NCBI GenBank assembly: GCA_041483895.1
Contig: JBGPGO010000007.1
Span: 131,378-195,377 of the forward strand
Reading direction: 5' to 3'
Source: Fimbriimonadia bacterium
Lineage (GTDB): Bacteria; Armatimonadota; Fimbriimonadia; Fimbriimonadales; JABRVX01
Length of the DNA: 64,000 nt
The translations under genes and the position numbers were made by a program. This document shows positions 7,832 to 63,198 of this stretch, piece by piece; the first letter of the stretch is position 1; each line of letters begins with the position of its first letter. The notes beneath the pieces are model-generated. The model saw nothing but the letters and a program-made list of their open reading frames with translations. It searched no databases and was not told the origin of the DNA.

Positions 7832-8689
7832 TCACTTCAGCCCGCTGGTCACGAACCCGCGGACAAAATATCTCTGACCCAGCAGGAACAGTAGGATGAG
7901 CGGCAACATCACGAGCACAGAACCCGCCATGATTAAATGCCACTGCTCGCTGTTAAGAGTCTGATAGGATCGCAACCCTAATTCCAGCGTCTGTTTGTCA
8001 GGATCATTCAAATAGAGCAGCGGTCCAAGAAAATCGCGCCAGCTCCAGATGAAGGAGAAGAGCCCGACCGTTGCCAGCGCCGGGCCGGACAGCGGCATGA
8101 TCAATCGCCAGAAGATTGTAGAATGCGATGCGCCGTCCAGCATGGCGGCCTCTTCCAATTCGCGCGGGATGGTCGCAAAAAACTGGCGCAGCATGAAGAT
8201 GTTGAACGCGCCGCCACCCAGCCAAGACGGCACGATCAGCGGATAGAACGTATCCACCCAGTGTAGATATTTGTAGAGAACATAGGTGGGAATCATCGTG
8301 ACTATCCCTGGGAGCATCATGGTACTGAGCAATAGGATGAATAAGCGATCCCTTCCTCGAAAGCGTAACCGCGCAAAGGCGTATGCCGCGAGGCTGGAAG
8401 TGATCAGTGTGCCGATCGTGGAGAGTGTGGCAATCAGAGCGCTGTTGCGGAAGAGAAGGCTAAACTTCACGTTCGGGTTGTCCAGCACTTGTCGAAAATT
8501 GTCCCACGACGCCATCTTTGGCCAAGCCCAAGCCGATGTCGTCGCAATCTCCGCCGGTGTCTTATAGGCCGTCGAGAGCATGATGTAGAATGGCACCAGC
8601 ATGCCAACCGCGCCCGCGACAAGCACCAGCCACACGATAGCATGCGACGTCCGTTTCGCCGTCCGCGCTTTGCGGTCTAGAGAATTCAC
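7832..8689 (-). CDS. Carbohydrate ABC transporter permease (MalG-like)
   Basis: Six TM segments and an EAA loop (ELEEAAMLDGASHSTIFWRLIMPLSGPAL). A 4-nt overlap with the upstream gene indicates coupling. Confidence 0.85.
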   Translation of the reverse strand: MNSLDRKARTAKRTSHAIVWLVLVAGAVGMLVPFYIMLSTAYKTPAEIATTSAWAWPKMASWDNFRQVLDNPNVKFSLLFRNSALIATLSTIGTLITSSLAAYAFARLRFRGRDRLFILLLSTMMLPGIVTMIPTYVLYKYLHWVDTFYPLIVPSWLGGGAFNIFMLRQFFATIPRELEEAAMLDGASHSTIFWRLIMPLSGPALATVGLFSFIWSWRDFLGPLLYLNDPDKQTLELGLRSYQTLNSEQWHLIMAGSVLVMLPLILLFLLGQRYFVRGFVTSGLK

Positions 8690-11130
8690 TTCGAGTCCGC
8701 CTCATAATACACCCACTTGCTCAGTCGGAACTGCAGCAGCGTGAATATCAATATGATGACAAACAGCACCCAAGCGAGCGCGGAGGCGTACCCCATTCGA
8801 AGCCCGTCGAACGCCTGTCGGTACAGATGCAGCATATAGAACAGCGTCGCATCGTTGGGGCCGCCGCTCGTCATCACGAACGATTGCGTGAACACTTGAA
8901 AGCTGCCAATCACTCCCGTTACCAAGCAGAAGAACAGCGCCGGGCTAAGCAACGGGATCGTAACGGCTCGGAACCGTTTCAGTGCGCCCGCTCCATCTAC
9001 CACGGCCGCTTCGTAGTACTCCTGCGGAATATTCTGCAGCCCGGCCAATAGGATCACCATGCCGCCACCGATACCCCACAACGACATGATGATCAATCCG
9101 GTTAATGCCGTGCTCTCATTGCCTAACCAGTTGATCTGCTGTCCGGCAGGAGACAAAGGCCGCAAAAGCGACGCGAGTCCAAGAAAGTCGCCCTTTCCAT
9201 TTGCGCCATAGATGATTGTGTTCAGCAGGCCGCCTTCCGGTTGGAAAATCCGTCTCCAGATCAGCGATGCCGCCACCACGCTCGCAAGGGATGGCAAATA
9301 GTAAACGGCGCGAAATAATGCCATTCCTCGCACCTTCGCATTGAGCAGCAGCGCCAGCATCAGCGAGCCGAAAAGGCCAAGCGGGACGGCAACCAGGGTG
9401 TAAACGAAGGTCACTCGCAATGAAAGCCAGAACCGAGGATCGGCGGTGAGGGCATCGGCGTAGTTCGCCGCACCGCGCCATCTTGCGGGCTGAATGATGT
9501 CCCAATCGGCCATGCTCATGAAAAACGAAAGAGCCATCGGACCGAATGTGAACACAACGATCCCAATCAGCCATGGAGCGATGAACCAATACGCGCTGCG
9601 ATTCTCTCGCTTCTCGCGATTGGAGTACCGCACGCCTCGCTCCGGCCAATAGACCCACAGGAGGATCCCCGACGCCAGCAAGAGCCCACCCAGGATCGCG
9701 GGCCCCCATGCAAACGGGGGAAGGCGCTCCTGTTTTCGCAGCGCGTCGAGGCGGGCCTGGGCCTCCGCGGTTCCCTCGTGCAGCGCCTGCTGTGCCGACT
9801 TCGTGCCGAGCCAGATAGTATCCAGGCGAGAAGTGAGCAATCCGTACACTTCAGGCCAAGCGTCACCCGAGGGGGCGAAGTGCACATACGGGATCGCCTC
9901 GTCCGTCACGATCCGATGTGCGGGATAGCGCATTTCAACCGGTGTGTTCGGTCCCGGAATCCAAACGTCTGATAGGGCGATGCGGCGGATCGCCGGCTGG
10001 CCCAGCCCCGACTCCGCCAGGTTCTTCATCCCTTGCGGGCCGGCGAGCCATTGGACGAGCAGCCAGGCCTCCCAAGGGTGCTGGGTTGAGCTTGCGATGG
10101 AATAGCCGGAGCCGCCGGTCGGGAATCGCCTCGTCCCATCCTTGTATGCCGGAAAAAGAGTGATGTCGTAATCGAAAAATTCCTTCGTCCCGGGCTTCAG
10201 AAACTTGCGAAGGTTGGGAACTTCCCAAATTCCGGTCTGGTACATTGCCACCTTTTGCGATACGAACAGCATGGTGGCGTTGGTCTGCATCACGCTCGAC
10301 ATTTCAGTCGGGCTCGGCTCAAATCCGTACTTGAATATCAGGTCTGCCGCCAAACCGTACCCGCGCCGCATCGCGGGGCTATCGAATAGGATCTTGGTCG
10401 GGTTCTCATAATCATCGGTGAACCTTCCTCCCAATGAAAGTGAGAAGCAGTCCGCCGTCAGGCTCGGCCATCCGGGGCTGTATCCCCACTGAATCGTTTT
10501 GCCCTCTTGGTTCTTTTTGGTGAGCTGCCGCATAACCCATAGGAAATCCTTGTCCCGCAATTCCGGCCGCACCTTATCATCCCATGTCCAGCTTCCATCC
10601 GGATACGGAATCCCCGCTTCGTCAAACAGCCGCTTGTTGTAGTAGATCAGGCCGATGGGCGCGATGTCGCGAGGAAGAACGTACAGCCGGCCTTTCCGCC
10701 GGTGCGCGCGGACGATCGGTTCATAGTATTGTTTGATGTCGAATCCCGGTGTTTTCGCGATAAAACCGTCCAGGGGCAGCAGCGCCTTTCGCTTGGCGAA
10801 TTGCTGGAACCGCTCGAAGCCCATCATGAGGACGTCCGGTGCGACGTTGGCGGCATACTGTGCCAGCATCTTCTGCTGATACATACCGTAGTCCACGTTC
10901 TCCAGCTTCACTTTTATGTAGGGGTAGCGCTGTTCAAACTCCGCGATGGTCTTGCGTTGCACGCTCAGGGCTTGGTCGCCTTCCCAGGACGCCAATCGGA
11001 GGACGATTGGGTTCGGCGCCGCCACTCCATGGCCAGCTGCAAGCAAGAAAAGGAGGTAGATGACAGTCAGGCGGAACACTTTGCTTCGCGCGACATACGT
11101 CACGCGATTAAGGCTGGTTCCGTGCTTCAC
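8686..11130 (-). CDS. Fusion protein: extracellular sugar-binding protein (family 1 SBP) + MalF-like ABC permease
   Basis: The N-terminal ~480 aa have a signal peptide plus an SBP_bac_1-like sequence (LRLASWEGDQ...FEQRYPYIKVKLENVDYG...). This is followed by a TM anchor and a permease with an EAA loop (YYEAAVVDGAGALKRFRAVTIPLLSP). One uninterrupted ORF. Confidence 0.75.
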   Translation of the reverse strand: MKHGTSLNRVTYVARSKVFRLTVIYLLFLLAAGHGVAAPNPIVLRLASWEGDQALSVQRKTIAEFEQRYPYIKVKLENVDYGMYQQKMLAQYAANVAPDVLMMGFERFQQFAKRKALLPLDGFIAKTPGFDIKQYYEPIVRAHRRKGRLYVLPRDIAPIGLIYYNKRLFDEAGIPYPDGSWTWDDKVRPELRDKDFLWVMRQLTKKNQEGKTIQWGYSPGWPSLTADCFSLSLGGRFTDDYENPTKILFDSPAMRRGYGLAADLIFKYGFEPSPTEMSSVMQTNATMLFVSQKVAMYQTGIWEVPNLRKFLKPGTKEFFDYDITLFPAYKDGTRRFPTGGSGYSIASSTQHPWEAWLLVQWLAGPQGMKNLAESGLGQPAIRRIALSDVWIPGPNTPVEMRYPAHRIVTDEAIPYVHFAPSGDAWPEVYGLLTSRLDTIWLGTKSAQQALHEGTAEAQARLDALRKQERLPPFAWGPAILGGLLLASGILLWVYWPERGVRYSNREKRENRSAYWFIAPWLIGIVVFTFGPMALSFFMSMADWDIIQPARWRGAANYADALTADPRFWLSLRVTFVYTLVAVPLGLFGSLMLALLLNAKVRGMALFRAVYYLPSLASVVAASLIWRRIFQPEGGLLNTIIYGANGKGDFLGLASLLRPLSPAGQQINWLGNESTALTGLIIMSLWGIGGGMVILLAGLQNIPQEYYEAAVVDGAGALKRFRAVTIPLLSPALFFCLVTGVIGSFQVFTQSFVMTSGGPNDATLFYMLHLYRQAFDGLRMGYASALAWVLFVIILIFTLLQFRLSKWVYYEADSK

Positions 11131-13504
11131 AGCTCGTTGCCGATACGGAGTGGATTGCGCCGGAACCGGCAGAGGTCAGCAAATTTCCATCGAGCGGCTC
11201 GCCATCCACATGGAGTTGCAGCGCTTTCTCCAACCCGGTGATGTTGAATCGTATGTCGAACCGTTCTCCTCGGAATCGCCGCATCACGCGGTAGGTCTCC
11301 CAGGCGCCCGGCTCGATGAGCAGGCCTTTTCGAGTCGCCCGCACCCCGCACAGCCAATCGAGCGCGATCCGGTACATCCAGGCGGAAGAGCCCGTGTACC
11401 ATGTCCAGCCGGCTCTGCCCTCATTTGGCGAGTCAGGTCCATCCACGTTTCCTGGCATGACATAGGGTTCGGCGGCGTACCGCCCTGCATCCTCCGCCGC
11501 TCGGCAAGGCGGAGACATTGACCGGTAAATGGAGTAGGCGGTTTCCATTTCGCCCATCATGGCGAAGGCTTGAATCGCCCACGTGGAAGCATGGCTGTAC
11601 ACCCCGCCATTCTCCCGAAGTCCGGGCGCGTATCGCGTTATGTAGCCGAGGGACGGATCGACGGAGTCAAACGCCGGCGCGAGGAGCAGCGCCCCGTACG
11701 GCTTGACCAGACGTTCGCGGACCGACTCCATGGCTGTCCGTACCCGCTCCGGGGTACCGCTGCCGCTGATTGCGGCCCAGGTCTGCGGATTGAGGAAGAT
11801 GGAACCCTCTTTGCACTCGTGGCTGCCGAACGGCCTCCCGTCGTCGCGGAAACCGGCGACGTACCAATCGCCATCCCATCCGTGCTTGTTGATCGCTGTG
11901 AAGAGCTCTTCGTTTGCCAAATCGTAACCCGCAACGAGGTCGCAGCGCCCCAATTCTTTGAGCGTTGGAGTGAGCCGCCGAAGAATGTCGACAAGGAACA
12001 TCGCCAGCCAGACGCTTTCCCCTTTCCCGTCGATCCCCGCATGGCTGAGGCCGTCGTTCCAGTCGCCGGCTCCGATCAGCGGCAATCCCCGCGCCGATCG
12101 TCTTTCCAGAGCGCGATCGATGCCGCGCAGAACATGATCCAACACCGTTCCCTTCGCCCCGAATCGCTGTGTGGTTCTCGATAGGAAACGGCATGGTTCC
12201 TCGGCAAAGTCGAGGTCGTTCGACTCATCAAGATAGGCGAGGAATCCATAAGCGGGCCACAAACTGGTGTCGCTGTGGCGGCTTTCGGAGAATATCTCGG
12301 TACCCGGATGCCACCAGTGCCGGACACCGCCGTCTTCATACATGGCTTCCAGGTGCGTCCGCAACTGCTGCTTGGTCTTCTCCGGATGCAAGGAGCACCA
12401 AAGCAGGCTGTCTTGCAGTTGATCCCGGTACCCGTATGCGCCGCCCTGCTGATAGTAGCCGCATCGAGCCTGCAGGCGGCCGACAATCGTTTGATATTTC
12501 ATCCAGTGGTTGGTCAGTAGGTTCACGCCTTCGTCCGGAGTTTCGATGAACGTCTCTTGCAACAACCGACTCCAATGGTCCTTCAGCCGGTCCAATTCTC
12601 GCTGTGCCTGGCAGATCGTCCATCCCTCGCTCGCCTGCTCGGCCGCGGCACGGTCGGTTTCCGCTCCCAGCACAAATAAAAGAGTCTTCGTTTCGCCCGG
12701 TCCTAAACTCAATGGGACAATCACTGAGGCGATTGGGTCTTGCCACCGTGTTCCAGCACAGGAGGGATCTTGCCGTCGAAGCGAGTCGGGGTTTGCAAGG
12801 CTTCCACCCGGACCGATGAAGGAGGCTTTGCTGGTGTTCCACGCGACGGACTCCGCTCCCTTGACGGCGTGAAATGCGAATAGCTCGCAATCCTCCGGTT
12901 CCCGAATGTTCTCCTTCATCCCCGGGTGCTTCCAAGCCAAGCATCGATCGGATGCGCAGGAGGTTTCTATGAACAGCCGATGGAATTCCCGGTGCCATTC
13001 GCCGACAGCTCCCAGAAACCAATCGACATAGGAAGCGACGCGCAAGGAGCGCGTTTCGGCGCCAATGTTCGTCACCTCTAACAGCCAGAGTTCGCAGTTG
13101 GCTTCGAGAGGGACGAAGCAGGTCTGGCGGGACCGAATGCCGAACAGCTCACGCTCGAATATCGTGTACCCGAGCCCGTGGGTCACCGCTTCAATATCTG
13201 CCCGCAGCCGCGTCGGCCCCCAGGTTGTTGACCAAGGTGGGCCCGGCTGGTCGAGGTCCTGGAGGTAGATATAACGGCCGTAGGCGTCGGCAACCAGATC
13301 TTGCTCCCACCTGGTGATTCGGTGGAGCTGGCAATTGTCCAGCCAGGAGAACCCGCCTCCCGCCTGGCTCACGATGGCGGAATACCGTCCATTGCTGAGA
13401 ATATTGACCCAAGGCGTCGGGGTTCGGGGATCGGTGATAATGAACTCTCGGCCGTCTGGGGAGAAAAATCCGAATTCGTTGGGCATGACACCCTGGTGAG
13501 GCAT
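11108..13504 (-). CDS. GH94-family glycan phosphorylase (cellobiose / chitobiose / beta-1,2-oligoglucan phosphorylase-like)
   Basis: N-terminus FGFFSPDGREFIITDPRTPTPWVNILSNG and central QQGGAYGYRDQLQDS are GH94-like. Length is about 800 aa. The start is uncertain (ATG 13504, ATG 13486 or TTG 13564). Confidence 0.75.
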   Translation of the reverse strand: MPHQGVMPNEFGFFSPDGREFIITDPRTPTPWVNILSNGRYSAIVSQAGGGFSWLDNCQLHRITRWEQDLVADAYGRYIYLQDLDQPGPPWSTTWGPTRLRADIEAVTHGLGYTIFERELFGIRSRQTCFVPLEANCELWLLEVTNIGAETRSLRVASYVDWFLGAVGEWHREFHRLFIETSCASDRCLAWKHPGMKENIREPEDCELFAFHAVKGAESVAWNTSKASFIGPGGSLANPDSLRRQDPSCAGTRWQDPIASVIVPLSLGPGETKTLLFVLGAETDRAAAEQASEGWTICQAQRELDRLKDHWSRLLQETFIETPDEGVNLLTNHWMKYQTIVGRLQARCGYYQQGGAYGYRDQLQDSLLWCSLHPEKTKQQLRTHLEAMYEDGGVRHWWHPGTEIFSESRHSDTSLWPAYGFLAYLDESNDLDFAEEPCRFLSRTTQRFGAKGTVLDHVLRGIDRALERRSARGLPLIGAGDWNDGLSHAGIDGKGESVWLAMFLVDILRRLTPTLKELGRCDLVAGYDLANEELFTAINKHGWDGDWYVAGFRDDGRPFGSHECKEGSIFLNPQTWAAISGSGTPERVRTAMESVRERLVKPYGALLLAPAFDSVDPSLGYITRYAPGLRENGGVYSHASTWAIQAFAMMGEMETAYSIYRSMSPPCRAAEDAGRYAAEPYVMPGNVDGPDSPNEGRAGWTWYTGSSAWMYRIALDWLCGVRATRKGLLIEPGAWETYRVMRRFRGERFDIRFNITGLEKALQLHVDGEPLDGNLLTSAGSGAIHSVSATSCEARNQP

Positions 13505-13628
13505 TCGAGTCTCAATTCTTGGAGGAAGTTGGTCAATTCTACCAGAACTGAAACCTTTCTGCAACCCGCATTTTTCCTTAAGTCATAGAAAATACCTACC
13601 CCGAAAGGTTGCTGTGTGGCACAAGTTG

Positions 13629-13687: not shown

Positions 13688-15406
13688 ATGAACGTCATGA
13701 AGACGCGTACCCTGCTTTGTGCGGCTGTTGGCATCTGTCTGGTGGCAACAGGCTCCGCGCAAAGGTTTTCATCAATCTACAAGTCCGAAAGGTACTTCAA
13801 CGACAACCCCTTATCGGTCCTCAAGTCGACCGACCAATATCCGAAAAGTTTGAAGATGGACGAAAGCAACCTCAATGTCAATATCAATCGGCACGTCTAT
13901 TACTTTTCGGAAGACGGCGGCGCCAATCCGTCGTTATTCAACAACACCGAGTATTGGAATATTTCAACGGATGTCACGATCAATCATGATCCTGTGGTTT
14001 ACCGGCAGGAAGCGGGAATCTACTTCAACTACAACGGTTGGGACGGCCAGATGATGGTGGCCTCCGACGGCGAAGTCGCTGTCTTCGGCTACATTCTTCC
14101 GTTCCACACATTCGGCAACATTTATACAGAAGGCACCACGATCCGAATCGGGATTCGCTATTTCAACGATCCCAATGACGGACTCAACAAGCTGGAGTAT
14201 TACGCCGGGAACAACAGCGTGGTGTACACACCCGGTAACACGGAACAGGGTTTGCTGGACGGCACGAAGCTAGGCTTCTACGCTCAGGACCGGGGCGATG
14301 CAGGCAACCCGACCGAGACTCACATTCGATTCAGCCACATCGTCGCGGGGTTAGATCCCGATCCGTTCGCCAATGTCCAGATCAACGAGAGAGTTTTCAA
14401 CGACACCCCGGGCAGTGTTTTGACAACAACGAACAGCTATCCGGACAGCATTCAGTTCGCCGAAACGGGACTCAACAATGGTCTCAATCGGCACCTTTGG
14501 TACTTCTCTCCGAACGGAGTTGACGCGAGTCTGTTCGGCAACACGGAGTATTGGAACGTCGCGATGGATGTGACAATCCAGCCGACGCCGAGCGGACCGA
14601 GACGCCAGGAAGCCGGCATGTACTTCAACTACAACGGCTGGGACGGCCAGTTCATGGTGGCCTCCGATGGGGAGATAGCCATATTTGGCTACATTCTGCC
14701 GTTCTACAAGTTCAAGACGACGTACGCGGTCGGCACGACGATCACCATAGGGATGCGCTACTTCAACGATCCCTGTGATGGCAAGAACAAGCTGGAATAC
14801 TACGCAGGCAACGAATCCAAGGTCGTCACACCGGACAACGGCGAACAAGGACTGTTGACCGGAACCAAATTGGGCGCGTATTGCCAGCATGGCGGCAGCC
14901 TGGCCGAGCCGCACGACGTGACCTCGACCTTTAGCCATATCGTCGGCGTCCACTGGTTCAATTCGACGGCCTCGTCAATCGGTGGCGCGGTATCGCTCGA
15001 CCTGTTCTCCGGCGATCCAAGCATACTTTCCGGTGAGCTCGAGCTCCGAGATCCGGACACCAATGCAGTTCTCAACACCTATGGCGTCACCCTGGAAAGC
15101 GATGGCACGTACACGGTTCCTTCCGTCGTTCCCGGCACATACGACGTCGCCTTCAAGCTGGACCACTTCCTAAGAGAAGTGAGTTCCTCGGTCGAAATTG
15201 GCGCCGGCTGCGCAACGGCGGACTTCAATCAAATCAACGGAGATGCGGACGGCAACAATCAGGTCGCCCTCCCGGACCTCAACCAACTGTTCATCAACTT
15301 CGCTTCCACCACCGAACCCGGTTCGGATCTGGATGGAAGCGGACAAGTGGACCTGGGAGACATCAATGCCGTCTTCCTGAACTTTGCCATGGTTGGAGCG
15401 CCTTAG
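13688..15406 (+). CDS. Secreted protein: 2x ~200-aa unrecognised domain + beta-sandwich + dockerin-like C-terminus
   Basis: Signal peptide (MKTRTLLCAAVGICLVATGSAQ). Internal duplication between aa ~34-233 and ~234-420, with shared blocks NRH.YYFS, TEYWN, RQEAG.YFNYNGWDGQ.MVASDGE.A.FGYILPF, RYFNDP.DG.NKLEYYAGN and FSHIV. C-terminal paired DxDGxxxVxxxDLN motifs. An alternative start is the ATG at 13697. Confidence 0.8.
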   Translation: MNVMKTRTLLCAAVGICLVATGSAQRFSSIYKSERYFNDNPLSVLKSTDQYPKSLKMDESNLNVNINRHVYYFSEDGGANPSLFNNTEYWNISTDVTINHDPVVYRQEAGIYFNYNGWDGQMMVASDGEVAVFGYILPFHTFGNIYTEGTTIRIGIRYFNDPNDGLNKLEYYAGNNSVVYTPGNTEQGLLDGTKLGFYAQDRGDAGNPTETHIRFSHIVAGLDPDPFANVQINERVFNDTPGSVLTTTNSYPDSIQFAETGLNNGLNRHLWYFSPNGVDASLFGNTEYWNVAMDVTIQPTPSGPRRQEAGMYFNYNGWDGQFMVASDGEIAIFGYILPFYKFKTTYAVGTTITIGMRYFNDPCDGKNKLEYYAGNESKVVTPDNGEQGLLTGTKLGAYCQHGGSLAEPHDVTSTFSHIVGVHWFNSTASSIGGAVSLDLFSGDPSILSGELELRDPDTNAVLNTYGVTLESDGTYTVPSVVPGTYDVAFKLDHFLREVSSSVEIGAGCATADFNQINGDADGNNQVALPDLNQLFINFASTTEPGSDLDGSGQVDLGDINAVFLNFAMVGAP

Positions 15407-15532: not shown

Positions 15533-16279
15533 CTAGAATGGAAGGGAATTACAGAATGTGTCGAGCCAGGGAATCGATGTCGGCGAGCCGTTGATATCGT
15601 AGACCCATTGGCCGCGCGTGTATTGCCACATGTTTTCCGCATTATCCGGCTGGCAGGTCAGTCGGAGAGGGATGTTTTTCGAGTGGCCATCCATGAAGAG
15701 TGTGACCATGGAGCGATCATCACGGCGGCCGCCACCCCAGTTCGGGATGTTCCAACCGCCTTTTCCGTTGTAGAGATACTCAATCCATGGACCGTAGTCC
15801 GGGTACACGTCCTTGTTTTCCGCAACGACAATCGCTTTCGCCGGTTCGTGGACGGACCGAGCGGTGTAATTGGCCACGTCCTGCCAATTCCCGGTTTTGA
15901 AGAACGGTCTGTAGTAAAAGTAACCGCGATAGAAGCGTGGTTTTACCGGGTTTGTCATAACGGCTTGCTCATCGAAGATGCGCGCGCCCGGATTCAGAGG
16001 ATCCTTGAAAACTTCGGCGCTTTTCGCGTACGGCTGCAAACCGTGCTTCCAACTCCGGCGCCCGTCATCGTCTCGGATCTTGAACATGACGCCGTTCTGA
16101 TCGTCCACGTACATCTGAATTGCGGTGCCGATCTGCTTCATGTTCGAGATGGTAACTGTTCCCATCGCGGAAACCCGCGCGCTGGCAAACACTGGGAAAA
16201 GAATGGCTGCCAGAATGGCAATGATAGCGATTACCACGAGAAGCTCGATGAGAGTAAAGGCCTTTTTATTCAATTTCAT
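15533..16279 (-). CDS. Prepilin-type N-terminal cleavage/methylation domain protein, DUF1559-like pseudopilin
   Basis: N-terminus MKLNKKAFTLIELLVVIAIIAILAAILFPVF is a class III signal/methylation motif. The C-terminal part has the ...LFMDGHS... pattern seen in the DUF1559 family. Confidence 0.85.
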   Translation of the reverse strand: MKLNKKAFTLIELLVVIAIIAILAAILFPVFASARVSAMGTVTISNMKQIGTAIQMYVDDQNGVMFKIRDDDGRRSWKHGLQPYAKSAEVFKDPLNPGARIFDEQAVMTNPVKPRFYRGYFYYRPFFKTGNWQDVANYTARSVHEPAKAIVVAENKDVYPDYGPWIEYLYNGKGGWNIPNWGGGRRDDRSMVTLFMDGHSKNIPLRLTCQPDNAENMWQYTRGQWVYDINGSPTSIPWLDTFCNSLPF

Positions 16280-16295
16280 TCGATCACCTCAAGAC

Positions 16296-17330
16296 TTAGC
16301 TTGTATAAAGTTCGGGACGGCTGGTCGAGCCCCGCACGTCAATCGCGAGCGGGAAGACGACCTGCAAGTGGTCTACGGGTTGTTTATGAACAATCGAGGC
16401 CAGCAGGATGGTTGCCCGCCTCGCCATATCTCGAATCGGTTGACGAATACTGGTTAGTTTCGGGTCGACCCGATCGCATGAATCCGTGCTGTCAAACCCC
16501 ACGATTGACACGTCCTTGGGAACCGCCAGACCCAGTTCGCACAGTAGCCGCAGGCAGTTGAACGCCACGTCATCGGACCAGACAAAAAGCGCCGTCGGTC
16601 GGTCCTTGCGGTTCATCAAATCGATGAGCGCCCCAGTGTTCGAAGAAGGGGTTTCCATCGTGACAACCATCTCCGGATCGAACGGCAACGACGCCTCCTC
16701 AAGGGCGCTTCGAAAGCCATGCAGGCGATCCGTGGAACTCCGCGACCCGTGCGGTCCCCGAATCATACCAAGCCGCTTGTGCCCAAGTGAAATCAAGTGT
16801 TCGGCCGCCAGCCGGCCGCCAGAATAGTTATCGGCATCCACAAAGGGTACGTCCGGATCGTCGGTCCGCGTGAAAAACAGAACGCTCGGAAACTTGCGGT
16901 TCAACAGGTCCAGCTGTGTTTGATCGTCGACGTCTCGCAGAACCAAAGCGCCGTCCACACGGCCATCGGAGATCACATCGGCTTCGCTCCCCGCGCCGTT
17001 TACGGCTTTCGTGTGGAGCAGCAGGTCCATCCCAGTCTCCACGCATCCCTCGCACACGCCGTGCATCGCCTCGGCAATGAAATTCGACCACGATGAAAAG
17101 TAGGTGGCATACTGAAAAACGACGGCGATCGTATCGGTCTTCTGTTTCAAAAGCATCTTTGCCAACGCGTTGGGCCGATAGCCTAACTCGCGGGCGACCT
17201 CAATCACCCGTTCTTCCGTGCCGGCACTGATGCGCGCCTCTGTTGCCCTGCCGTTCAGGACGTAGCTGACGGTGACCTTGCTGACCCCGGCAAGGCGTGC
17301 CACATCCTCAATCGTATTTCTCTTCTCCAT
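16296..17330 (-). CDS. LacI-family transcriptional regulator
   Basis: N-terminal HTH TIEDVARLAGVSKVTVSYVLNG plus a periplasmic-binding-protein-like sugar-sensor domain. Size is 344 aa. Confidence 0.9.
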   Translation of the reverse strand: MEKRNTIEDVARLAGVSKVTVSYVLNGRATEARISAGTEERVIEVARELGYRPNALAKMLLKQKTDTIAVVFQYATYFSSWSNFIAEAMHGVCEGCVETGMDLLLHTKAVNGAGSEADVISDGRVDGALVLRDVDDQTQLDLLNRKFPSVLFFTRTDDPDVPFVDADNYSGGRLAAEHLISLGHKRLGMIRGPHGSRSSTDRLHGFRSALEEASLPFDPEMVVTMETPSSNTGALIDLMNRKDRPTALFVWSDDVAFNCLRLLCELGLAVPKDVSIVGFDSTDSCDRVDPKLTSIRQPIRDMARRATILLASIVHKQPVDHLQVVFPLAIDVRGSTSRPELYTS

Positions 17331-17499: not shown

Positions 17500-17700
17500 A
17501 TGAGAAAAGAAATTCCAGCGAAAACGATGGCAGTCATCGGCGTTTTGATCGTCGCCGTCTTGGGAATCCTCGTTTGGCAAGTTTTCTTCAAGTCGGGGCC
17601 TACGAGTCCAGCAGAGATCGGAATCGGCGCGCCTGCGCTTCCGGGTGGCGGCACCGTCTCTCCCGGCAGTGGCAGCAACCCGAACGGGTCTGGAAAGTAA
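17500..17700 (+). CDS. Small single-pass membrane protein (66 aa), Gly/Pro/Ser-rich tail
   Basis: ATG preceded by GGAG. One TM helix (MAVIGVLIVAVLGILVWQVFF). Sits upstream of the MoxR operon. No family recognised. Confidence 0.4.
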   Translation: MRKEIPAKTMAVIGVLIVAVLGILVWQVFFKSGPTSPAEIGIGAPALPGGGTVSPGSGSNPNGSGK

Positions 17701-17854
17701 AGCGAGTCAACCGGCCGTTACTATGGGCTTGGCCCTAGGCTCCTTGGCGGAGAGTCGTTCAATCGAATCTCCCATTCGGTTGGCACGGCACTTAACTTCG
17801 TTCGTCAAAGGTATTGTAGAATGCCGGGTATTGGTTGTAATCAGGGGAGGGGAC

Positions 17855-18868
17855 ATGGACGAGCAGGCTCACTTGGCGCAGTTAGACCAGATTCGACAGC
17901 AGTATGAGACGCTGCTCGAGGAAGTTCACAAAGTTATCATTGGCCAAGACGATGTTGTCCGCCATCTGGTGAGCGCGCTCTTTGCGAAGGGACATTGTAT
18001 CGTCATTGGCGTGCCCGGCCTTGCGAAAACCCTTCTTGTGAAAACCCTGGCCCAATGCCTTTCCTGGGACTTCAAACGCATTCAGTTCACTCCCGACCTG
18101 ATGCCCAGCGACATCATCGGCACGGAGATTCTGGACACCGACCCGGCAAGCGGCGGACGCTCTCTTCGTTTCGTCCGGGGTCCGGTCTTCGCCAATGTCA
18201 TCCTCGCTGACGAAATCAACCGCACTCCGCCGAAAACTCAAAGCGCCCTTCTGGAGGCGATGCAGGAGTATGCCGTTACCGTTGCGGGCCACACGATGCC
18301 GCTCGACCCGCCGTTCTTCGTCGTCGCCACGCAAAACCCGATCGAGCAGGAAGGCACCTATCCATTGCCCGAAGCCCAGCTTGACCGGTTTATGTACAGC
18401 CTCTACATCGATTACCCCACCGCCGAGGAAGAGGAAGCGATCGCCGAAAGCACGACGACGAACGAAGTGCCGGAAGCAGGGACCGTGTTCACCAAGGAGG
18501 AACTGCTGAACGCCCAGCGGTTGGTGCGTGAGATTCCCGTCTCGCCGCACGTAGTCAAATACGCCGTCTCCCTCGCCCGTGCCAGCCGGCCCGGTTCTCC
18601 GGAAGCGCCATCGATGATCAAGAAATACTCGCAATGGGGCGCCGGTCCGCGCGCCGCCCAATACCTGCTGCTGGGAGGCAAGGCATTTGCCGTCATGCAA
18701 GGCAAACCAACGCCGACCGCCGCCGACCTGCGCCAGATCGCCCCGCTGGTTCTGCGCCACCGAATCATCCCCAACTACGCCGCGGTTGCCGACGGAATCA
18801 CCGCCGCACACCTCGTCCAGGACCTTTTGCACAATGTGCGGGAGCCCGCGTATGCAACCGAAGGATGA
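17855..18868 (+). CDS. moxR: MoxR-family AAA+ ATPase
   Basis: ATG 17855 follows AGGGGAGGGGA. Walker A GVPGLAKT and Walker B VILADEINR. ...GQDDVVRHLVSALFAKGHCIVIG... is typical of MoxR (AAA_3). The upstream 70 codons of ORF 17645 have no support. Confidence 0.9.
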   Translation: MDEQAHLAQLDQIRQQYETLLEEVHKVIIGQDDVVRHLVSALFAKGHCIVIGVPGLAKTLLVKTLAQCLSWDFKRIQFTPDLMPSDIIGTEILDTDPASGGRSLRFVRGPVFANVILADEINRTPPKTQSALLEAMQEYAVTVAGHTMPLDPPFFVVATQNPIEQEGTYPLPEAQLDRFMYSLYIDYPTAEEEEAIAESTTTNEVPEAGTVFTKEELLNAQRLVREIPVSPHVVKYAVSLARASRPGSPEAPSMIKKYSQWGAGPRAAQYLLLGGKAFAVMQGKPTPTAADLRQIAPLVLRHRIIPNYAAVADGITAAHLVQDLLHNVREPAYATEG

Positions 18869-19787
18869 GATCCCCTCGACTTCGCTCGGGGCAGGTGGCA
18901 CTGGGCGGCGCTTCCTCCAACCCGCGGACCTAAAGCGTCTGCAAAATTTGCAGTTCGCCGCGAAATTGATCGTCGAGGGCTATTTCCAGGGCAAGCACCG
19001 CTCGCCCTATTACGACTTCTCTTCAGAATTCGCCGACTATCGCCCCTACACGCCGGGCGACGAAATCCGTGCCATTGATTGGAGGGCCTTCGCGCGCACG
19101 GATCGCTTCTATATCAAGCTGTATCGCAAAGAGACCGACATGAACTGCTGCGTCCTCGTGGACAAGAGCAATTCCATGGCATTTCGCGGCAGCTCGCCCC
19201 TTACGAAGCTCGAATATGCCAATTTCCTCGCGGCCGCCCTGTCCTATTTAATGATAATGCAGGGGGACAAGACCGGCCTGGCGCTCTGCGACGACAAAAT
19301 GTCCGGCTTCGTGCCCGCCGGCGGCACCATGCGAACGCTCCAGCAAATGCTGGTGACATTGGAGCGCGCCACCCCCGGCGGCCCGACGAAGCTCGCGGAA
19401 GGCCTTCGCGTGCTGTTCAGCCTGCTGAAGCGCAAGGGTCTTCTTGTCGTGATCTCCGATTTCCTGGACGACACGAGCGAGGTCTTTTCCGCCCTCAGCA
19501 TGTTCGCGCATAAGGGCTTTGCTATCTTGCTCTTTCACGTCCTGACCGATGACGAAATGAATCTTCCGCTGGTCAGCAACGCGTTGTTTCAAGACATGGA
19601 ATCGCCCGCGTCCGTTTCCGTGGAGCCGGAACCGATCCGTGCGGCCTATCAGGAGGAGATGCGCGGGTTCATTGCGGAGATGGAATCGAACGCGAAGGCA
19701 CGCAGAATGCACTACCAGCTTGCCACGACAGCCGAACCGTATACCAGAGCTCTCGAAGCCTATCTGACGGCAAGGGCCAGGCTATAA
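18852..19787 (+). CDS. DUF58-family protein (vWA-like, MoxR partner)
   Basis: FADYRPYTPGDEIRAIDWRAFARTDRFYIKLYRKE is the DUF58 signature. MIDAS-like VLVDKSNSM. Overlaps the moxR 3' end by 17 nt. Confidence 0.85.
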   Translation: MQPKDEIPSTSLGAGGTGRRFLQPADLKRLQNLQFAAKLIVEGYFQGKHRSPYYDFSSEFADYRPYTPGDEIRAIDWRAFARTDRFYIKLYRKETDMNCCVLVDKSNSMAFRGSSPLTKLEYANFLAAALSYLMIMQGDKTGLALCDDKMSGFVPAGGTMRTLQQMLVTLERATPGGPTKLAEGLRVLFSLLKRKGLLVVISDFLDDTSEVFSALSMFAHKGFAILLFHVLTDDEMNLPLVSNALFQDMESPASVSVEPEPIRAAYQEEMRGFIAEMESNAKARRMHYQLATTAEPYTRALEAYLTARARL

Positions 19788-24124: not shown

Positions 24125-24128
24125 TGCA

Positions 24129-41809: not shown

Positions 41810-44245
41810 CTAGTCGTCTCCAACGAGATCGAAATTGCTAAAGACCGTATTGAGATCGGGAAGATTGACGACGCCGTCGCCATCGAGATCCGCGTTCTGG
41901 TCTTGGGTACCGAAGCTGGAGAACACGGAGTTCAAATCCTTCACGTCTACCCGGTTGTCGGCCACCTCCGCATTGCCGTTGCTCAACACGATGTTCAAGC
42001 CGGGATTGTTGTCGGGCTGATAATCGACTTCGAGTGTCCGACGCAGCCAGTGGGACGGCTTTACAGAAACCGTGAATCGGGTGACGGGGACGTCGAGATT
42101 CAGGACAAAGCGGCCCTCGTTGTCGAGCGGAACTGAATAGTCGTGGGAAGATTTGCCCAACGGCGTGACGGTCATATCAACGGATGATGGTCGCGCGCCA
42201 TGTTGGCTAAGACCTTGGAATTCCACGGCGCCTCTTACTGACATGATTTTCGTCGACTGAACAACTGGGTCAAACACTTCGACAAATTCCCAGCTCAATG
42301 GCGGCATGGTAAAGGTCAATTTTAGCGTGCTTCCACTATTGAATTTGATCCACTTCCCTCGCAGCCCTTTGTATGCCGCCTTGAGAATATCGTCAGGCAG
42401 GAAGAAATCGGAAGGGGTGATGTTTACAGTAACAGTTTTCGCGGTTTCGCTTGGGTTCCAGAAACAGAGGTATCCGTACTTTCCGTTCAACTTTGGCCGC
42501 AGATGGTACATGCCATCGACCCACTCACTCCCGAAATTGGAGGAGTTGGTTGGGTCGTAGCATCGCTTCGTGCTATCGTCAATTTGGGTGTAGGCTGTGT
42601 ACTCTTGGTTTTCTCTGAACCAGGCGACCCACTTCTTGCAAAGAGCCATTTCGGAGGCGGTGATACCATCGAGCGAGCCGCTAAACTCCAAATTGCAGTA
42701 CGAACCGACGATGGATGCCAGACTATATTCCAGCGCGTCCAACGCAGTCTCAATGCCAGGCAGATGCGCGGGCGTCGTACCCGTCCGGCCCCAATTCGGC
42801 ATCAATGCGTTCGTCCAACCGGTTCCGTTTCGTGTGGAATCCGCCGAGCGGTACCACCAACGCGGGTCCTGGCGACGCGGATCGTTGAGGCCGGCGAGAA
42901 TCCAATCCGTTTGCCAACCCATATCGTTGTAACCGAGCGTTGGTGTCGTGGAATAGCCGCGGTCCAGGACGATTTCGGGTCTCGCTGCTCGAAGCTGCTC
43001 GCAGGTCAGCTTCCAGTTCGCCAATTGACCCATCAATGCGGAGCCCGGAGCGTGGGGATGATCGATGGCCCAGCAATAGTCGCGCTCTACGACAAAGTCA
43101 AGTTTCAGAAAATCGGCTTGAGTCTCATTCACCCAGGACAGTATCTTATTGGTGATCGTTTGCTGCCAATCGGTTGCAAAGCAGTATGCCGGCATGCCGG
43201 GACTCCAGATGGCGCCTCCAGGGTTCAAGATTAGCCGACTTGGATCGATGTTTGGCGCACTGGGATCCGTAAGCGCGGGCGCAATCCAGAAGCCAAACTT
43301 CATTCCATTGTTCCGGATGTTCTGCGAACAGGCGCCGAGTCCGTGCGGAAACCCAAATATATCCAGCCCCCAAGAGCCGTATAAATTCTCCCAGCCGTCA
43401 TCCACGACAAAATAATCTGCGCCGAGCTGCTTGGCGGTGGGGGCGATACGGGCACAATCGTCCTCGGTGACATTCGTCTTGTACCCATACCAGGTGTTGT
43501 AGATCACCGGTCTGTTCATCCGTGAAGCATGCGCGAGGTATGTCCCCCAAAACAGTTGGAGACCAAATGCCGCCGTGTATTTGGTGCCCTTTGCCAAACA
43601 GAGAACAGCCTGTTCCGTGTGGTCCGTTTCTTGCTGTACCCGCATCGACGCGGTAATCGCGTTATTGGCGCGATCGCAGACTCCGGCGGGGCGAGGGAGG
43701 TTGCACTCCAAACCGATCGCATACCCCTGTCCCGCGACCGCGATGCCGTTGTCGTCCCAGACGCCAAACGAGCCGTTGACCACCGGCGATGTGATCGTTA
43801 GCTTTTCTACCAGAGCCGATTCCACCCGCTGCTTGGGCAGGAACTCGAACCACTTTGCGATCCAGGGCCGGTTGCCCTTGAATATCCGATAGTGGATCAC
43901 GAAGTTCAAACCGTTTTTCTCGGCGATCACCCGGACGTGCTTGGCTTCCACCTCATCTTCAACCTGAATATCTTGAATGGTCGAGCCGACGAGATCGACG
44001 GTTCCGGATGGAAGAGTGATCGTCCCTTCGCTGTTCTGCTGAGCGATCATCTCTTGACCCCGAATCTTCAATGAGGTAGTTATCAGGTCCAAGGACACGA
44101 CGCGGCTGCAGACGTCGTTCTCCATGGTGATTCCGGTAGTCCCAATCGTAACTTTGGCGTAGTCGCCGGAAAAGAAAGGATTGGAATTATAGGCCTGCGC
44201 CGTAGCGGTTACCAAGAGTGGCGTTAGCATCCAGAAACGAAACAA
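41810..44245 (-). CDS. Secreted alpha-galactosidase-like TIM-barrel glycosidase (GH36/GH27-like) with C-terminal beta-sandwich + dockerin-like module
   Basis: TTG start lies 7 nt after AAGGAG. Signal peptide MFRFWMLTPLLVTATAQA. YNTWYGY...YFVVDDGWEN...GMKFGFWIAP...DFLKLDFV are melibiase-type motifs. The C-terminus is ...VDVKDLNSVFSSFG...DLDGDGVVNLPDLNTVFSNF. Confidence 0.6.
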   Translation of the reverse strand: MFRFWMLTPLLVTATAQAYNSNPFFSGDYAKVTIGTTGITMENDVCSRVVSLDLITTSLKIRGQEMIAQQNSEGTITLPSGTVDLVGSTIQDIQVEDEVEAKHVRVIAEKNGLNFVIHYRIFKGNRPWIAKWFEFLPKQRVESALVEKLTITSPVVNGSFGVWDDNGIAVAGQGYAIGLECNLPRPAGVCDRANNAITASMRVQQETDHTEQAVLCLAKGTKYTAAFGLQLFWGTYLAHASRMNRPVIYNTWYGYKTNVTEDDCARIAPTAKQLGADYFVVDDGWENLYGSWGLDIFGFPHGLGACSQNIRNNGMKFGFWIAPALTDPSAPNIDPSRLILNPGGAIWSPGMPAYCFATDWQQTITNKILSWVNETQADFLKLDFVVERDYCWAIDHPHAPGSALMGQLANWKLTCEQLRAARPEIVLDRGYSTTPTLGYNDMGWQTDWILAGLNDPRRQDPRWWYRSADSTRNGTGWTNALMPNWGRTGTTPAHLPGIETALDALEYSLASIVGSYCNLEFSGSLDGITASEMALCKKWVAWFRENQEYTAYTQIDDSTKRCYDPTNSSNFGSEWVDGMYHLRPKLNGKYGYLCFWNPSETAKTVTVNITPSDFFLPDDILKAAYKGLRGKWIKFNSGSTLKLTFTMPPLSWEFVEVFDPVVQSTKIMSVRGAVEFQGLSQHGARPSSVDMTVTPLGKSSHDYSVPLDNEGRFVLNLDVPVTRFTVSVKPSHWLRRTLEVDYQPDNNPGLNIVLSNGNAEVADNRVDVKDLNSVFSSFGTQDQNADLDGDGVVNLPDLNTVFSNFDLVGDD

Positions 44246-57904: not shown

Positions 57905-58394
57905 TCTGTCTGGAGCCGCAATCGGCCGCCGGGTCCGACCGACCTGGATCGCGTGCATCGCCGCTTACTCCAGCCACTTCATTTTGGACCATTATCCGCA
58001 TCTGGAACCACTGCGCGAGTGGCCTATGTGGCAACGAACGCTATTTGGCTATTCGGATGCCGCCATAGCCATCATCATGCTTGCTCTGGTTATCCGATGG
58101 AATCGGGAGCGATGGCTGCCCATTGTTCTCTGTGCTTTTCTGGCCGATTGGCCGGACATTATGCGCTCCATTCCCGTCGTGTCTCCGTGGCTTATCGAAA
58201 TGCCGATATGGAAGCAGATGAACGACTTTCACAACAGCTTCCACGCGCAGACCGTATGCGCGACATGGTACACGGGACTCTGGGGACAGGTGTTGGTGAT
58301 ATGGATCTCCATGTGGCTATTGCGGCCCAAATCGAGGGATTCGCACCCTCAGCTCTTAGCGGTGGCGAAGCGTTCGACCGGAGATGGAACCTAG
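57885..58394 (+). CDS. Small polytopic membrane protein, possibly YdjM/DUF457-like metal-dependent hydrolase
   Basis: Four hydrophobic segments and a His-rich N-terminal pattern (PHILSG...SSHFILDHYPH). The assignment is weak. The 5' end overlaps the divergent upstream gene start by ~20 nt. Confidence 0.35.
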   Translation: MMTLPHILSGAAIGRRVRPTWIACIAAYSSHFILDHYPHLEPLREWPMWQRTLFGYSDAAIAIIMLALVIRWNRERWLPIVLCAFLADWPDIMRSIPVVSPWLIEMPIWKQMNDFHNSFHAQTVCATWYTGLWGQVLVIWISMWLLRPKSRDSHPQLLAVAKRSTGDGT

Positions 58395-61367: not shown

Positions 61368-61554
61368 GTCAGTTTACCGCTCCGGCAGCCTGGCGGTTGC
61401 GACGGAACTTGGAACCTTTTAAGCCCGTTCACCATCATTACGAGTAGCAAAAACAGTCGCTCCGGGATATATTGGAGATGGCGAGCATATTCAGTGATTT
61501 AGACGAAGTGCACTGGCCCTATCTTTGCAGGGAGAGACCAGGAGGTTTCGCGAC

Positions 61555-63198
61555 ATGCGAATTCGAGCAGCAATTCTAGGTATTCTTGCTAGCGCCTTTG
61601 CCGTTGCGTCTGCTCAAACAACTATCCGAACGGTCTTTGGACCAAGCATTCAGGAGGTTGTGCCGGGTGAGATTCTGATCAAGTTTCGGCCCGGAGTGAC
61701 CTCACTCGACCAGAGCCGTTTGGCAGCCCAGCTCGGCGGGACCATTAGACCCTCCATTGGCGGCAACGGCTTTCAGAAGATCCTCCTCTCGAAGTTTGCC
61801 AACGTCGTAGGATTGGCCGATTATCTGAAGACATTGCCGGGAGTTGAAGTGGCAGAGACCAACGGCTATGTGTACGCAGCCTCGAATCCTAACGATCAGT
61901 ACTATCCTCAGCAATGGAACCTGCCAAAAATCAATTGGCCGACCGCCTATGCACAATATTGGGGGAAGTCCACCGTAATTATCGCCAGCGTCGACACGGG
62001 TGTTAATCCCAATCAGGAAGACCTGGTCGGCAAAGTACTGGCTGGGCGCGACTTCGTAAACAACGACGACAATCCGATGGATGACAACGGGCACGGGACA
62101 TTTGGCGCCGGCATTGCCGCCGCTTGGACGAACAATATGGTTGGCATTGCGGGGACCGCGCCCGGCGTGACTATTTTGGCTGTCAAGGTCTTGAACTCGG
62201 CCGGCCAGGGCACCTGGGAGAACCTGGCGGCAGGGATCGACTATGCTGTTGCCCACGGAGCGCAAATCATTAATATGAGCTTAGCCGGAGCGGGAGGCAA
62301 GGCCATCACTCAGACGGCGGTGGAAAACGCGGCCAATGCCGGTTGTATTCTGTCGGTCGCGGCCGGCAACGGGGGATCAACGACTCCGCAATACCCTGCC
62401 GCCTACGAGCAATGCATTGCCGTGGGAGGCACCGACCAGAACGATGCCCGATGGTCCGGTTCCAACTACAACGCGGGGATGAGTCAATGGGTTGACGTCG
62501 CCGCCCCTTCGGTAACCATTTGGGGCTGCCAATTGACGAACAACTATAACGCCGGCAACGGAACATCATACGCAACGCCGCAGGTGTCGGCGGAAGCCGC
62601 GCTACTTTACTCCGCGCTTACCGAGCCGAACCCGCAAACGCCGCGTTCGACATCCATTGCAGCACAGGTGAGGCAGATCATTGAAGCCAATGTGGTGGAT
62701 GTTGGGGCGTGGGTGATTAAGGGCCGCATCAATTTGGGCGCAGCGGTGAGTTCCGTTGTGAAAGTATGGCTGACCGGCACCGTGACGTTGGACAATCATG
62801 TCGCTCCCCAGACGATTCCAGTGACGGTCCAGGTGCTGCAACCGGGGACCGGCACAGTGGTGGAAACCGAGGTTTTCAACACAAACCCTGCGGGAAATTT
62901 TCAGGTGGCACTCAAGTTCACCGGTCTCAAAGACTTGCGATTTTCCTCAGGGGCGCAGTTCTTGGCGAGACGGTTGAACGGAGCGGCGCTGAATAGCTTT
63001 TCGCCGACGTTTGTCGATATCGAATTGCCCAACGGCGACGTGACGCACAACGGAGCCGTTGATACGTTTGACCTGAACAATGTGTTTATGGAATTTGGAA
63101 ATTCAGGCACCGATGCGGACCTCAATGGCGACGGAGTAGTGGACCTCAGGGACCTGACAAATGTATTTCTGTTCTATGGACTGACGGCGGACAGTTAG
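61555..63198 (+). CDS. Secreted subtilisin-like (S8) serine protease with C-terminal beta-sandwich + dockerin-like module
   Basis: ATG 61555 follows AGGAGG. Signal peptide MRIRAAILGILASAFAVASAQ. Catalytic triad contexts are VASVDTGV, GHGTFGAGIAAA and GTSYATPQVS. C-terminus is ...VDTFDLNNVFMEFG...DLNGDGVVDLRDLTNVF. Confidence 0.88.
   Translation: MRIRAAILGILASAFAVASAQTTIRTVFGPSIQEVVPGEILIKFRPGVTSLDQSRLAAQLGGTIRPSIGGNGFQKILLSKFANVVGLADYLKTLPGVEVAETNGYVYAASNPNDQYYPQQWNLPKINWPTAYAQYWGKSTVIIASVDTGVNPNQEDLVGKVLAGRDFVNNDDNPMDDNGHGTFGAGIAAAWTNNMVGIAGTAPGVTILAVKVLNSAGQGTWENLAAGIDYAVAHGAQIINMSLAGAGGKAITQTAVENAANAGCILSVAAGNGGSTTPQYPAAYEQCIAVGGTDQNDARWSGSNYNAGMSQWVDVAAPSVTIWGCQLTNNYNAGNGTSYATPQVSAEAALLYSALTEPNPQTPRSTSIAAQVRQIIEANVVDVGAWVIKGRINLGAAVSSVVKVWLTGTVTLDNHVAPQTIPVTVQVLQPGTGTVVETEVFNTNPAGNFQVALKFTGLKDLRFSSGAQFLARRLNGAALNSFSPTFVDIELPNGDVTHNGAVDTFDLNNVFMEFGNSGTDADLNGDGVVDLRDLTNVFLFYGLTADS

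Follow-up and report, generated by a model that had tools for sequence, protein, structure and literature searches.

Three secreted proteins encoded in a 64,000-nucleotide stretch of the genome of a Fimbriimonadia bacterium (Armatimonadota; contig JBGPGO010000007.1, positions 131,378 to 195,377, hereafter the window) end in the same module of ~145 amino acids, and we find that this tail is a homologue of the X-module plus type II dockerin (XDoc) dyad of cellulosomes. XDoc is the cellulosomal unit for cell-surface attachment, and we consider it somewhat probable that the tail is a Ca2+-dependent XDoc docking tag, one that fixes diverse secreted proteins to a single common, probably cohesin-like receptor. 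The carriers are a protein with two tandem jelly-roll domains (gene 1), a melibiase-like glycosidase (gene 2), and an S8 subtilase (gene 3), and their tails are referred to below by the same numbers (Table 1).

That these proteins share a C-terminal module made up of a CarboxypepD_reg-like sandwich and two dockerin-type Ca-binding repeats was proposed in an annotation made from the DNA sequence alone (the first-pass annotation). The three open reading frames (ORFs) were as it described them, each motif string that it quoted is found in the translations, and the shared module stands: the tails align over ~146 columns with 24 invariant positions, and pairwise BLASTP E-values of 5e-14 (gene 2 against tail 1), 8e-9 (gene 3 against tail 1), and 2e-11 (the third pair) lead us to reject chance similarity. 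Outside the tail the carriers are unrelated, as had also been stated, with N-terminal parts that in a Pfam scan matched no family in gene 1, Melibiase in gene 2 (E 1e-11), and both Peptidase_S8 (2e-41) and a Fervidolysin_NPro-like segment (1e-7) in gene 3. A hidden Markov model (HMM) built from the three tails, a check suggested in the same annotation, recovered only these three from the six-frame translation of the window, with no further copies and the next match at an E-value of about 8. All three proteins carry Sec-type signal peptides, read from the sequence with no predictor score (MNVMKTRTLLCAAVGICLVATGSAQ; MFRFWMLTPLLVTATAQA; ...MRIRAAILGILASAFAVASAQ).

As defined by Bras et al. (2016; PMC5141474), the XDoc dyad joins an X-module of ~98 residues, with seven strands and a fold like that of carboxypeptidase D domain II, to a dockerin of two Ca-binding F-hands across an intimate, hydrophobic interface. 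The profile of a 13-sequence alignment of our module (A2; ~146 positions), searched with hmmsearch against all PDB sequences, had as its best matches the solved X-module and type II dockerin chains of cellulosomal scaffoldins, namely those of Acetivibrio cellulolyticus ScaA (4u3s_B, 2.3e-14; 4wi0_B, 3.7e-14), Clostridium thermocellum CipA/ScaA (2b59_B, 3kcp_A, and 5g5d_B, 5.5e-13 to 5e-12), and CipB (5k39_B, 6e-11). Profile positions 31-144 were aligned, covering the second half of the beta-sandwich and both dockerin repeats and including the motif GTY..(I/F)K...(Y/W)L.R, while type I dockerin (2y3n_B, 1e-7) and calmodulins (about 1e-5) were matched by the dockerin part only.

The predicted fold agrees with this assignment. 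Structure prediction, likewise proposed in the first-pass annotation, gave a confident AlphaFold2 (AF2) model of tail 1 (pLDDT 95.7, uniformly above 90; pTM 0.86) with eight strands in residues 3-88 followed by helices at residues 101-109 and 129-137. The ten best Foldseek matches of this model in the PDB all contain XDoc (E 3e-9 to 3e-6). Superposition on the XDoc crystal structures takes in the entire dyad, with a TMq of 0.72-0.75 and a root-mean-square deviation of 3.0-3.7 Å over about 160 columns; the relative placement of the two domains therefore also matches. Lower Foldseek matches covered the sandwich only, at TM about 0.4, and included the transthyretin-like domains of carboxypeptidases D and N (5aq0, 1qmu, 2nsm), CnaB, rhamnogalacturonan (RG)-lyase domain II, DUF3823, and a putative carbohydrate-binding protein. 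As modeled, an Ig-like sandwich of the carboxypeptidase D domain II type lies directly N-terminal to the dockerin, and the two are predicted to form one rigid unit. The sandwich-plus-repeats description in the first-pass annotation was thus right, and the profile matches and fold sharpen it to a homologue of the XDoc dyad.

Within the dockerin half, two tandem loop-helix (F-hand) segments of ~22 residues each place a 12-residue loop before each helix, and the residues expected from sequence to ligate Ca2+ (loop positions 1, 3, 5, 9, and 12) are canonical or nearly so in five of the six window loops. The repeat pattern that had been assigned to every tail stands for those five and fails for loop 1 of the glycosidase (NAEVADNRVDVKD), which is one residue longer than in its orthologues through an insertion and no longer has Asp-1 or Gly-4; because this loop is degenerate, the first binding face may be lost in the glycosidase copy. 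Seven orthologue clusters of the glycosidase have a canonical NGDxxGDN in loop 1 (NGDANGDN, for example). Across 144 dyads, Asp occupies positions 1 and 12 of both loops in 143-144, positions 3 and 5 are D/N and D, and the consensus reads D-x-(D/N)-G-D-N-x-V-(T/S)-L-x-D in loop 1 and D-L-(D/N)-G-D-(G/E)-x-V-x-L-x-D in loop 2. Two subtypes can be distinguished. The window tails, the database proteins P0001-P0003 and P0028, and the glycosidase orthologues have only 6-8 residues between the repeats, whereas the main Armatimonadota subtype has a linker of about 13 residues; the short-linker subtype is missing the PGDxNW insert of the main subtype (Trp in 132 of 144 dyads) and has helices of the form DLNxVFxxF in place of DFGxLVxxFG.

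Curated models recognize the window tails incompletely. Pfam CarboxypepD_reg (PF13620) scored 22.1 bits (2e-4) on tail 1, below its 32.3 cutoff, and did not match tails 2 and 3; among 83 tail carriers it reached E<=1e-5 in 14, where the match need not fall on the tail (in P0058 it covers residues 25-105, at the N-terminus). Pfam Dockerin_1 (PF00404) matched the S8 tail only (residues 504-546, 14.6 bits, E 0.039, below the 22.9 cutoff) and reached E<=1e-5 in 41 of the 83 family relatives, at best 3e-17. The NCBIfam model dockerin_GC (NF041540) gave 24.5 bits (2.7e-5) on the gene 2 tail, 20.7 bits (4e-4) on the gene 3 tail, and nothing on tail 1, and with all scores below the 29-bit cutoff we rejected membership in this GC-type dockerin family. 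A practical consequence is that the A2 profile can serve annotation by picking up tails that the curated Pfam and NCBIfam cutoffs would miss.

The cargo to which the tail is attached differs among the three genes. The tandem domains of gene 1 have no Pfam or PDB sequence match; they are 60% identical to each other (E 8e-83), and an AF2 model of the first (pLDDT 88) has PL7 alginate lyases and legume lectins as its closest Foldseek matches. We considered whether gene 1 could be a mini-scaffoldin with tandem cohesins and rejected this, as the domains are concanavalin A-like jelly rolls and no cohesin occurs among the top 50 Foldseek matches. Homologues of this cargo domain elsewhere are single-domain proteins that end in a PEP-CTERM sorting signal, and judging from the model the cargo looks like an uncharacterized family of surface lectin/lyase-like proteins. 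Because cargo homologues carry PEP-CTERM in place of the XDoc tail, the exchange suggests that the two have an equivalent role in surface retention. The gene 2 product is 100% identical to database protein P0234; its orthologues at 42-49% identity retain the tail in seven clusters, one member of which is named alpha-galactosidase [Fimbriimonadia bacterium], and the presence of one 37% homologue without the tail marks the tail as modular. For gene 3, the ATG at 61555 may be the true start.

Beyond the window the module is widespread and, with few exceptions, terminal. A profile search over 1.84 billion representatives returned 39,060 matches at E<=1e-3, 7,136 at <=1e-10, and 420 at <=1e-30, the weaker of which include sandwich-only or dockerin-only proteins, such as giants with 20-58 sandwich repeats. 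The named sources are all Armatimonadota (Fimbriimonadaceae, Chthonomonas, Chthonomonadia, and bacterium HR16), and NCBI names the relatives "dockerin type I domain-containing" or "carboxypeptidase regulatory-like domain-containing". Each species was represented by one genome in a scan made through a tight alignment (A4) of the main subtype, which leaves out the short-linker subtype of the window, and at least 377 genomic stretches were confirmed; 78 loci were kept, from the 10 best-matching Armatimonadota metagenome-assembled genomes (MAGs), with 3-14 loci each. The 83 carriers span 76 Pfam families, among them S8 (7 proteins), pro-kumamolisin/sedolisin, WD40/PD40 propellers, sortilin/BNR, beta-helix, and Ig. 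In 141 of 143 retrieved full-dyad proteins the dyad ends at the last residue of the protein, and in all 85 genomic copies (78 loci) the stop codon follows within 4 residues.

Such strict C-terminal placement (141/143 and 85/85) on diverse cargo is also what would be seen if the tail were a sorting signal read, and maybe cleaved, by outer-membrane machinery, comparable to the C-terminal domain (CTD) of the type IX secretion system (T9SS), PEP-CTERM/exosortase, or LPXTG/sortase. The homologous cargo that bears PEP-CTERM instead would fit this alternative, as would the recurrence of prepilin-type genes near tagged genes, including that at 15533-16279 in the window. We nevertheless regard it as quite unlikely. 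A transmembrane helix with basic cluster, a PEP motif, and an LPXTG motif are all absent from the tail, and the window tails end in ..VGAP, ..VGDD, and ..TADS with no hydrophobic C-terminal helix; Pfam and NCBIfam scans found no known C-terminal sorting-signal model (PEP-CTERM, T9SS CTD, or LPXTG) on the tails, NCBIfam giving the sub-threshold dockerin_GC matches only. Cellulosomal dockerins are themselves mostly C-terminal without being sorting signals, and genomic background may account for the 34 prepilin-like genes counted in about 1 Mb. Two exceptional carriers also do not fit a terminal secretion signal, because P0054 (1207 aa) consists of five tandem XDoc dyads and P0117, a polymorphic toxin of 1708 aa with RHS repeats and Tox-REase-7 at its C-terminus, has its dyad at the N-terminus (residues 70-215). 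The five dyads of P0054, together with the failure to find a receptor, could instead be taken to mean that contacts between dockerins, or between X-modules and dockerins, let the tagged proteins assemble with one another and make a dedicated receptor unnecessary, but known dockerins bind cohesins and homotypic binding is, to our knowledge, no established mode, and we hold self-assembly to be very improbable.

The pattern of conservation favors a docking tag with a common receptor. It was measured in 85 paralogous and orthologous dyads from the ten related MAGs, picked by similarity to the query, in which mean pairwise identity is 0.87 in the dockerin half and 0.52 in the X half, and genome-specificity per column (mutual information against permutation) has a mean z of 3.9 for dockerin columns and -0.9 for X columns. 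The clearest case is MAG SKYG40, where all five copies (L010, L040, L042, L074, and L076) have a ..VSL(L/I/M)D.. pattern, in which both repeats have Ser at loop position 9 and have Leu, Ile, Met, or Thr instead of Phe at position 11; in 78 of 80 copies from the nine other genomes the pattern is ..VTLFD.., with Thr and Phe at all four positions. Four SKYG40 copies mirror the change at these positions across their two repeats, and the remaining one has ..VSITD.. in repeat 1. The same tendency appears in the glycosidase, whose X half is 25-41% identical to those of its orthologues versus 20-22% to the other two window tails, while its dockerin half is 46-47% identical to in-genome paralogues and 40-53% to orthologues; at helix position 17, all six window repeats have Phe, whereas the glycosidase orthologues have Leu in each of their 14 repeats. 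In cellulosomal dockerins, repeat positions 10/11 and 17/18 are the sites of cohesin contact and specificity, and the dual binding mode rests on the symmetry of the two repeats. Judged from sequence, the within-genome homogenization of the dockerin and the mirrored changes would be the signature of a shared binding partner.

These same data bear on a second alternative, that the tail is an orphan dockerin, a Ca2+-stabilized dockerin-like module without a protein receptor that binds exopolysaccharide, lipopolysaccharide, or peptidoglycan-associated glycan or merely adds stability or solubility. No cohesin was detected in the window or the related loci searched, the X-module fold also resembles carbohydrate-associated sandwiches (TM about 0.4), and Peer et al. 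in 2009 (as cited in PMC6461901) reportedly found many dockerin-bearing genomes without recognizable cohesins; orphan dockerins of this sort are common outside the producers of cellulosomes. We think this alternative rather unlikely, given that the strongest homology is to protein-binding XDoc and that across differing cargo the dockerin is conserved at 87% versus 52% for the X-module, with genome-specific changes that are mirrored between repeats; near-invariant, mirrored dockerin helices are expected of a specific protein interface and not of a stabilizing module.

In the docking mechanism that we prefer, each protein would be exported by Sec via its N-terminal signal peptide, after which the dockerin (about 55 residues) would fold around two Ca2+ ions with the Ig-like X-module (about 85-90 residues) rigidly packed on it. 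The exposed faces of the two near-identical helices (DLNxVFxxF in all six window repeats) would then dock the cargo, here a protease, a glycosidase, and a lectin/lyase-like protein, to one common receptor; this would probably be a cohesin-like module, carried by a scaffold or cell-surface protein whose gene lies in another part of the genome. The role of the X-module, as in the type II complexes of clostridia, would be to stabilize the dockerin and perhaps to enlarge the interface. The first-pass annotation had suggested a common anchoring or sorting route, and that idea gains indirect support from five observations: the surface role of XDoc in cellulosomes, the obligate C-terminal position, the PEP-CTERM exchange, the homogenization of the dockerin, and the mirrored changes. 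The homology, fold, Ca-ligand conservation, C-terminal position, cargo diversity, and within-genome dockerin homogenization were obtained directly; binding and anchoring, along with Ca2+ coordination, the existence and nature of the receptor, and retention at the cell surface, are inferred.

A number of points weigh against a docking tag with a cohesin-like receptor. As the first-pass annotation had noted, no cohesin partner is apparent in the window at the level tested: Pfam Cohesin (PF00963) was absent from the 37 other window ORFs at Pfam sensitivity, and phmmer with CipA cohesin 7, a query validated on 1aoh_A (300 bits), found nothing at single-sequence sensitivity in either the window or the 78 related loci (about 1.05 Mb), flanks that amount to about 3% of those genomes. 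The Pfam-annotated surroundings of loci L002 and L003 also held no cohesin, in what is a weak test; an NCBIfam scan of six poorly annotated window ORFs gave nothing cohesin-like; and PDB sequence searches gave no cohesin-like match for 29740-32193 or 40193-41770. With Pfam or single-sequence sensitivity and about 3% of the genomes covered, these cohesin negatives are weak, and according to a 2026 preprint, many ruminococcal cellulosomes are hidden from sequence homology-based methods by extensive divergence. Among neighboring genes in the 78 loci, only prepilin-like (34 ORFs in 26 loci) and LacI (13 in 13) genes truly recur, which is probably genomic background; the largest recurrent "family" (118 ORFs) was rejected as an antisense artefact of the conserved tail. 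The conservation argument has its own weaknesses, in that choosing the 85 dyads by similarity inflates dockerin conservation and gene conversion could homogenize paralogues without any partner. In structure and context, the 6-8-residue linker has no middle helix, unlike that of type II dockerins, and the model shows two helices only; the carriers are enzymes or lectin-like proteins and include no cohesin-bearing scaffoldin, whereas clostridial XDoc sits on scaffoldins. The window tails also lie under the curated cutoffs of Dockerin_1, CarboxypepD_reg, and dockerin_GC, and the cultured Armatimonadota member Fervidibacter sacchari is reported to have neither cohesin nor dockerin domains (PMC11535203).

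Table 1. The three tailed genes of the window, the parts of their products, and the genes that follow gene 1
Feature	Position	Strand	Description
Gene 1	13688..15406	+	572-aa secreted protein: signal peptide, 2 tandem jelly-roll domains, XDoc-like tail
Gene 1, jelly-roll repeats	13760-14353 and 14354-14950	+	~195 aa each; concanavalin-A-like
Gene 1, X-module-like beta-sandwich	14969..15232	+	Model residues 1-88; motif GTYDVAFKLDHFLRE
Gene 1, dockerin	15236..15403	+	Two F-hand repeats; helices PDLNQLFINF and GDINAVFLNF; 8-residue linker
Gene 1, predicted Ca loops	15242-15277; 15326-15361	+	DADGNNQVALPD; DLDGSGQVDLGD; residue positions from alignment A2
Gene 2	41810..44245	-	811-aa secreted melibiase-like (alpha-galactosidase-like) glycosidase, XDoc-like tail
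Gene 2, X-module-like beta-sandwich	41981..42235	-	RGAVEFQGL...FTVSVKPSHWLRR...NIVLS; alignments A1, A2
Gene 2, dockerin	41813..41980	-	Loop 1 NAEVADNRVDVKD degenerate; loop 2 DLDGDGVVNLPD canonical; helices DLNSVFSSF and DLNTVFSNF
Gene 3	61525..63198	+	557-aa secreted S8 subtilase, fervidolysin-type prodomain, XDoc-like tail
Gene 3, X-module-like beta-sandwich	62752..63030	+	Most divergent of the three; LKDLRFSSGAQFLAR replaces GTYD.AFK.SHWLR
Gene 3, dockerin	63031..63195	+	Loops DVTHNGAVDTFD and DLNGDGVVDLRD; helices DLNNVFMEF and DLTNVFLFY
Prepilin-type N-methylation-domain protein	15533-16279	-	Pseudopilin-like; weak match to Verru_Chthon cassette protein D; directly downstream of gene 1
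LacI regulator	16296-17330	-	Downstream of gene 1

Several other features of the window were noted. What look like the genes of a glucan/cellodextrin utilization cluster (6575-13564) lie next to gene 1: an 814-aa ORF (8686-11130, minus strand), in which the ABC solute-binding domain SBP_bac_1 is fused to the permease domain BPD_transp_1, is overlapped by 23 bp by a GH94 phosphorylase gene (11108-13564) and adjoined by a second permease (7832-8689) and a glucoamylase-like gene (6575-7831). An aerotolerance-type (Bat-like) operon at 17645-28958 (plus strand) encodes a MoxR AAA_3 ATPase, DUF58, BatA/VWA, VWA, a 965-aa protein with no assigned family, and DUF4159; the genes for a multihaem cytochrome c (27546-28958) and a thioredoxin-like protein (28964-29740) come next. 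In the 818-aa ORF at 29737-32193 (minus strand), Pfam matches residues about 600-640 only, to a bacterial thrombospondin type 3 (Ca-binding) repeat, and the ORF is weakly similar to a biofilm-associated surface protein, CglD, and MtsD; its product may be a surface-located Ca-binding protein and could be a candidate receptor. Downstream of the glycosidase by 40 bp, a 526-aa ORF with a signal peptide (40190-41770, minus strand) has no Pfam, NCBIfam, or PDB sequence match and by eye resembles an LptD/OstA-like outer-membrane protein. Divergent from the S8 gene, 58356-61367 (minus strand) encodes a 1003-aa STAND-type protein with adenylate/guanylate cyclase, NB-ARC/AAA_16, and TPR regions.

Full-text searches of the literature turned up no account of systems based on dockerin, XDoc, or cohesin in Armatimonadota. 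The component domains were known already, since NCBI annotates relatives as dockerin type I or carboxypeptidase regulatory-like; what appears to be new is that the tail is recognized as a dyad of the XDoc type, that it is used across a diderm phylum as an obligate C-terminal tag on enzymes, and that there is evidence for a genome-specific recognition code. Taken at their widest, these data raise the tentative possibility, which we put forward with less confidence than docking itself, of a phylum-wide XDoc-based display system in Armatimonadota, in which many of each genome's secreted enzymes and lectins, and even an RHS toxin, would be docked by a genome-specific dockerin code to a cohesin diverged beyond the reach of sequence models or to a new fold on the outer surface of the diderm cell, as a non-cellulosomal, non-Firmicute counterpart of type II anchoring. 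If the tail does dock to a common receptor, a large part of the proteins secreted by this widespread, barely cultured phylum would be displayed on the cell surface by this route, which would explain how Armatimonadota retain their hydrolases there. The X-module/type II dockerin system would then reach past the clostridial cellulosome scaffoldins from which it is known and act as a general enzyme tag outside Firmicutes, and a compact, short-linker XDoc with new specificity would offer an orthogonal high-affinity pair for designer enzyme assemblies.

Among known systems, PEP-CTERM/exosortase resembles the tail in placing C-terminal tags on diverse secreted proteins, but PEP-CTERM signals consist of a short motif, then a transmembrane helix and a cluster of Arg, and are unrelated to the tail in both sequence and structure. 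The GC-type dockerin NF041540, the best NCBIfam match for two of the tails, reflects a general dockerin-repeat resemblance. A hypothetical "planctosome" has been described in freshwater Planctomycetes, where dockerins occur on peptidases and other non-cellulolytic proteins and surface-tethered enzyme complexes have been proposed (PMC6461901); both groups are diderm phyla outside Firmicutes, though cohesins were found there and none in the DNA searched here, and the dyad of our tails is of the XDoc type. Type I dockerins (PF00404) are likewise C-terminal tags on many secreted enzymes per genome, built from a duplicated 22-residue Ca segment, and the near-symmetric repeats seen here would be compatible with a dual binding mode as well; they differ in that the dockerin of our tail always stands behind a fused X-module and that 2y3n_B is a weaker match than XDoc.

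The closest comparison is with the XDoc of CipA/ScaA and CipB of C. thermocellum and ScaA of A. cellulolyticus (PDB 2b59, 5g5d, 5k39, 4u3s). Our tails come from another phylum, on enzymes and lectin-like carriers with no scaffoldins among them, and at least 3-14 copies per genome occur in the ten genomes listed; the searches made detected neither a type II cohesin nor an SLH-anchored partner. The repeats are also joined by a shorter linker, of 6-8 residues in the window and about 13 in the main Armatimonadota subtype versus the 23 residues, with a small helix, reported for CipB (PMC5141474). Against these differences stands the same C-terminal two-part architecture, with profile homology over both parts, a common fold and inter-domain arrangement, and two F-hand Ca loops.

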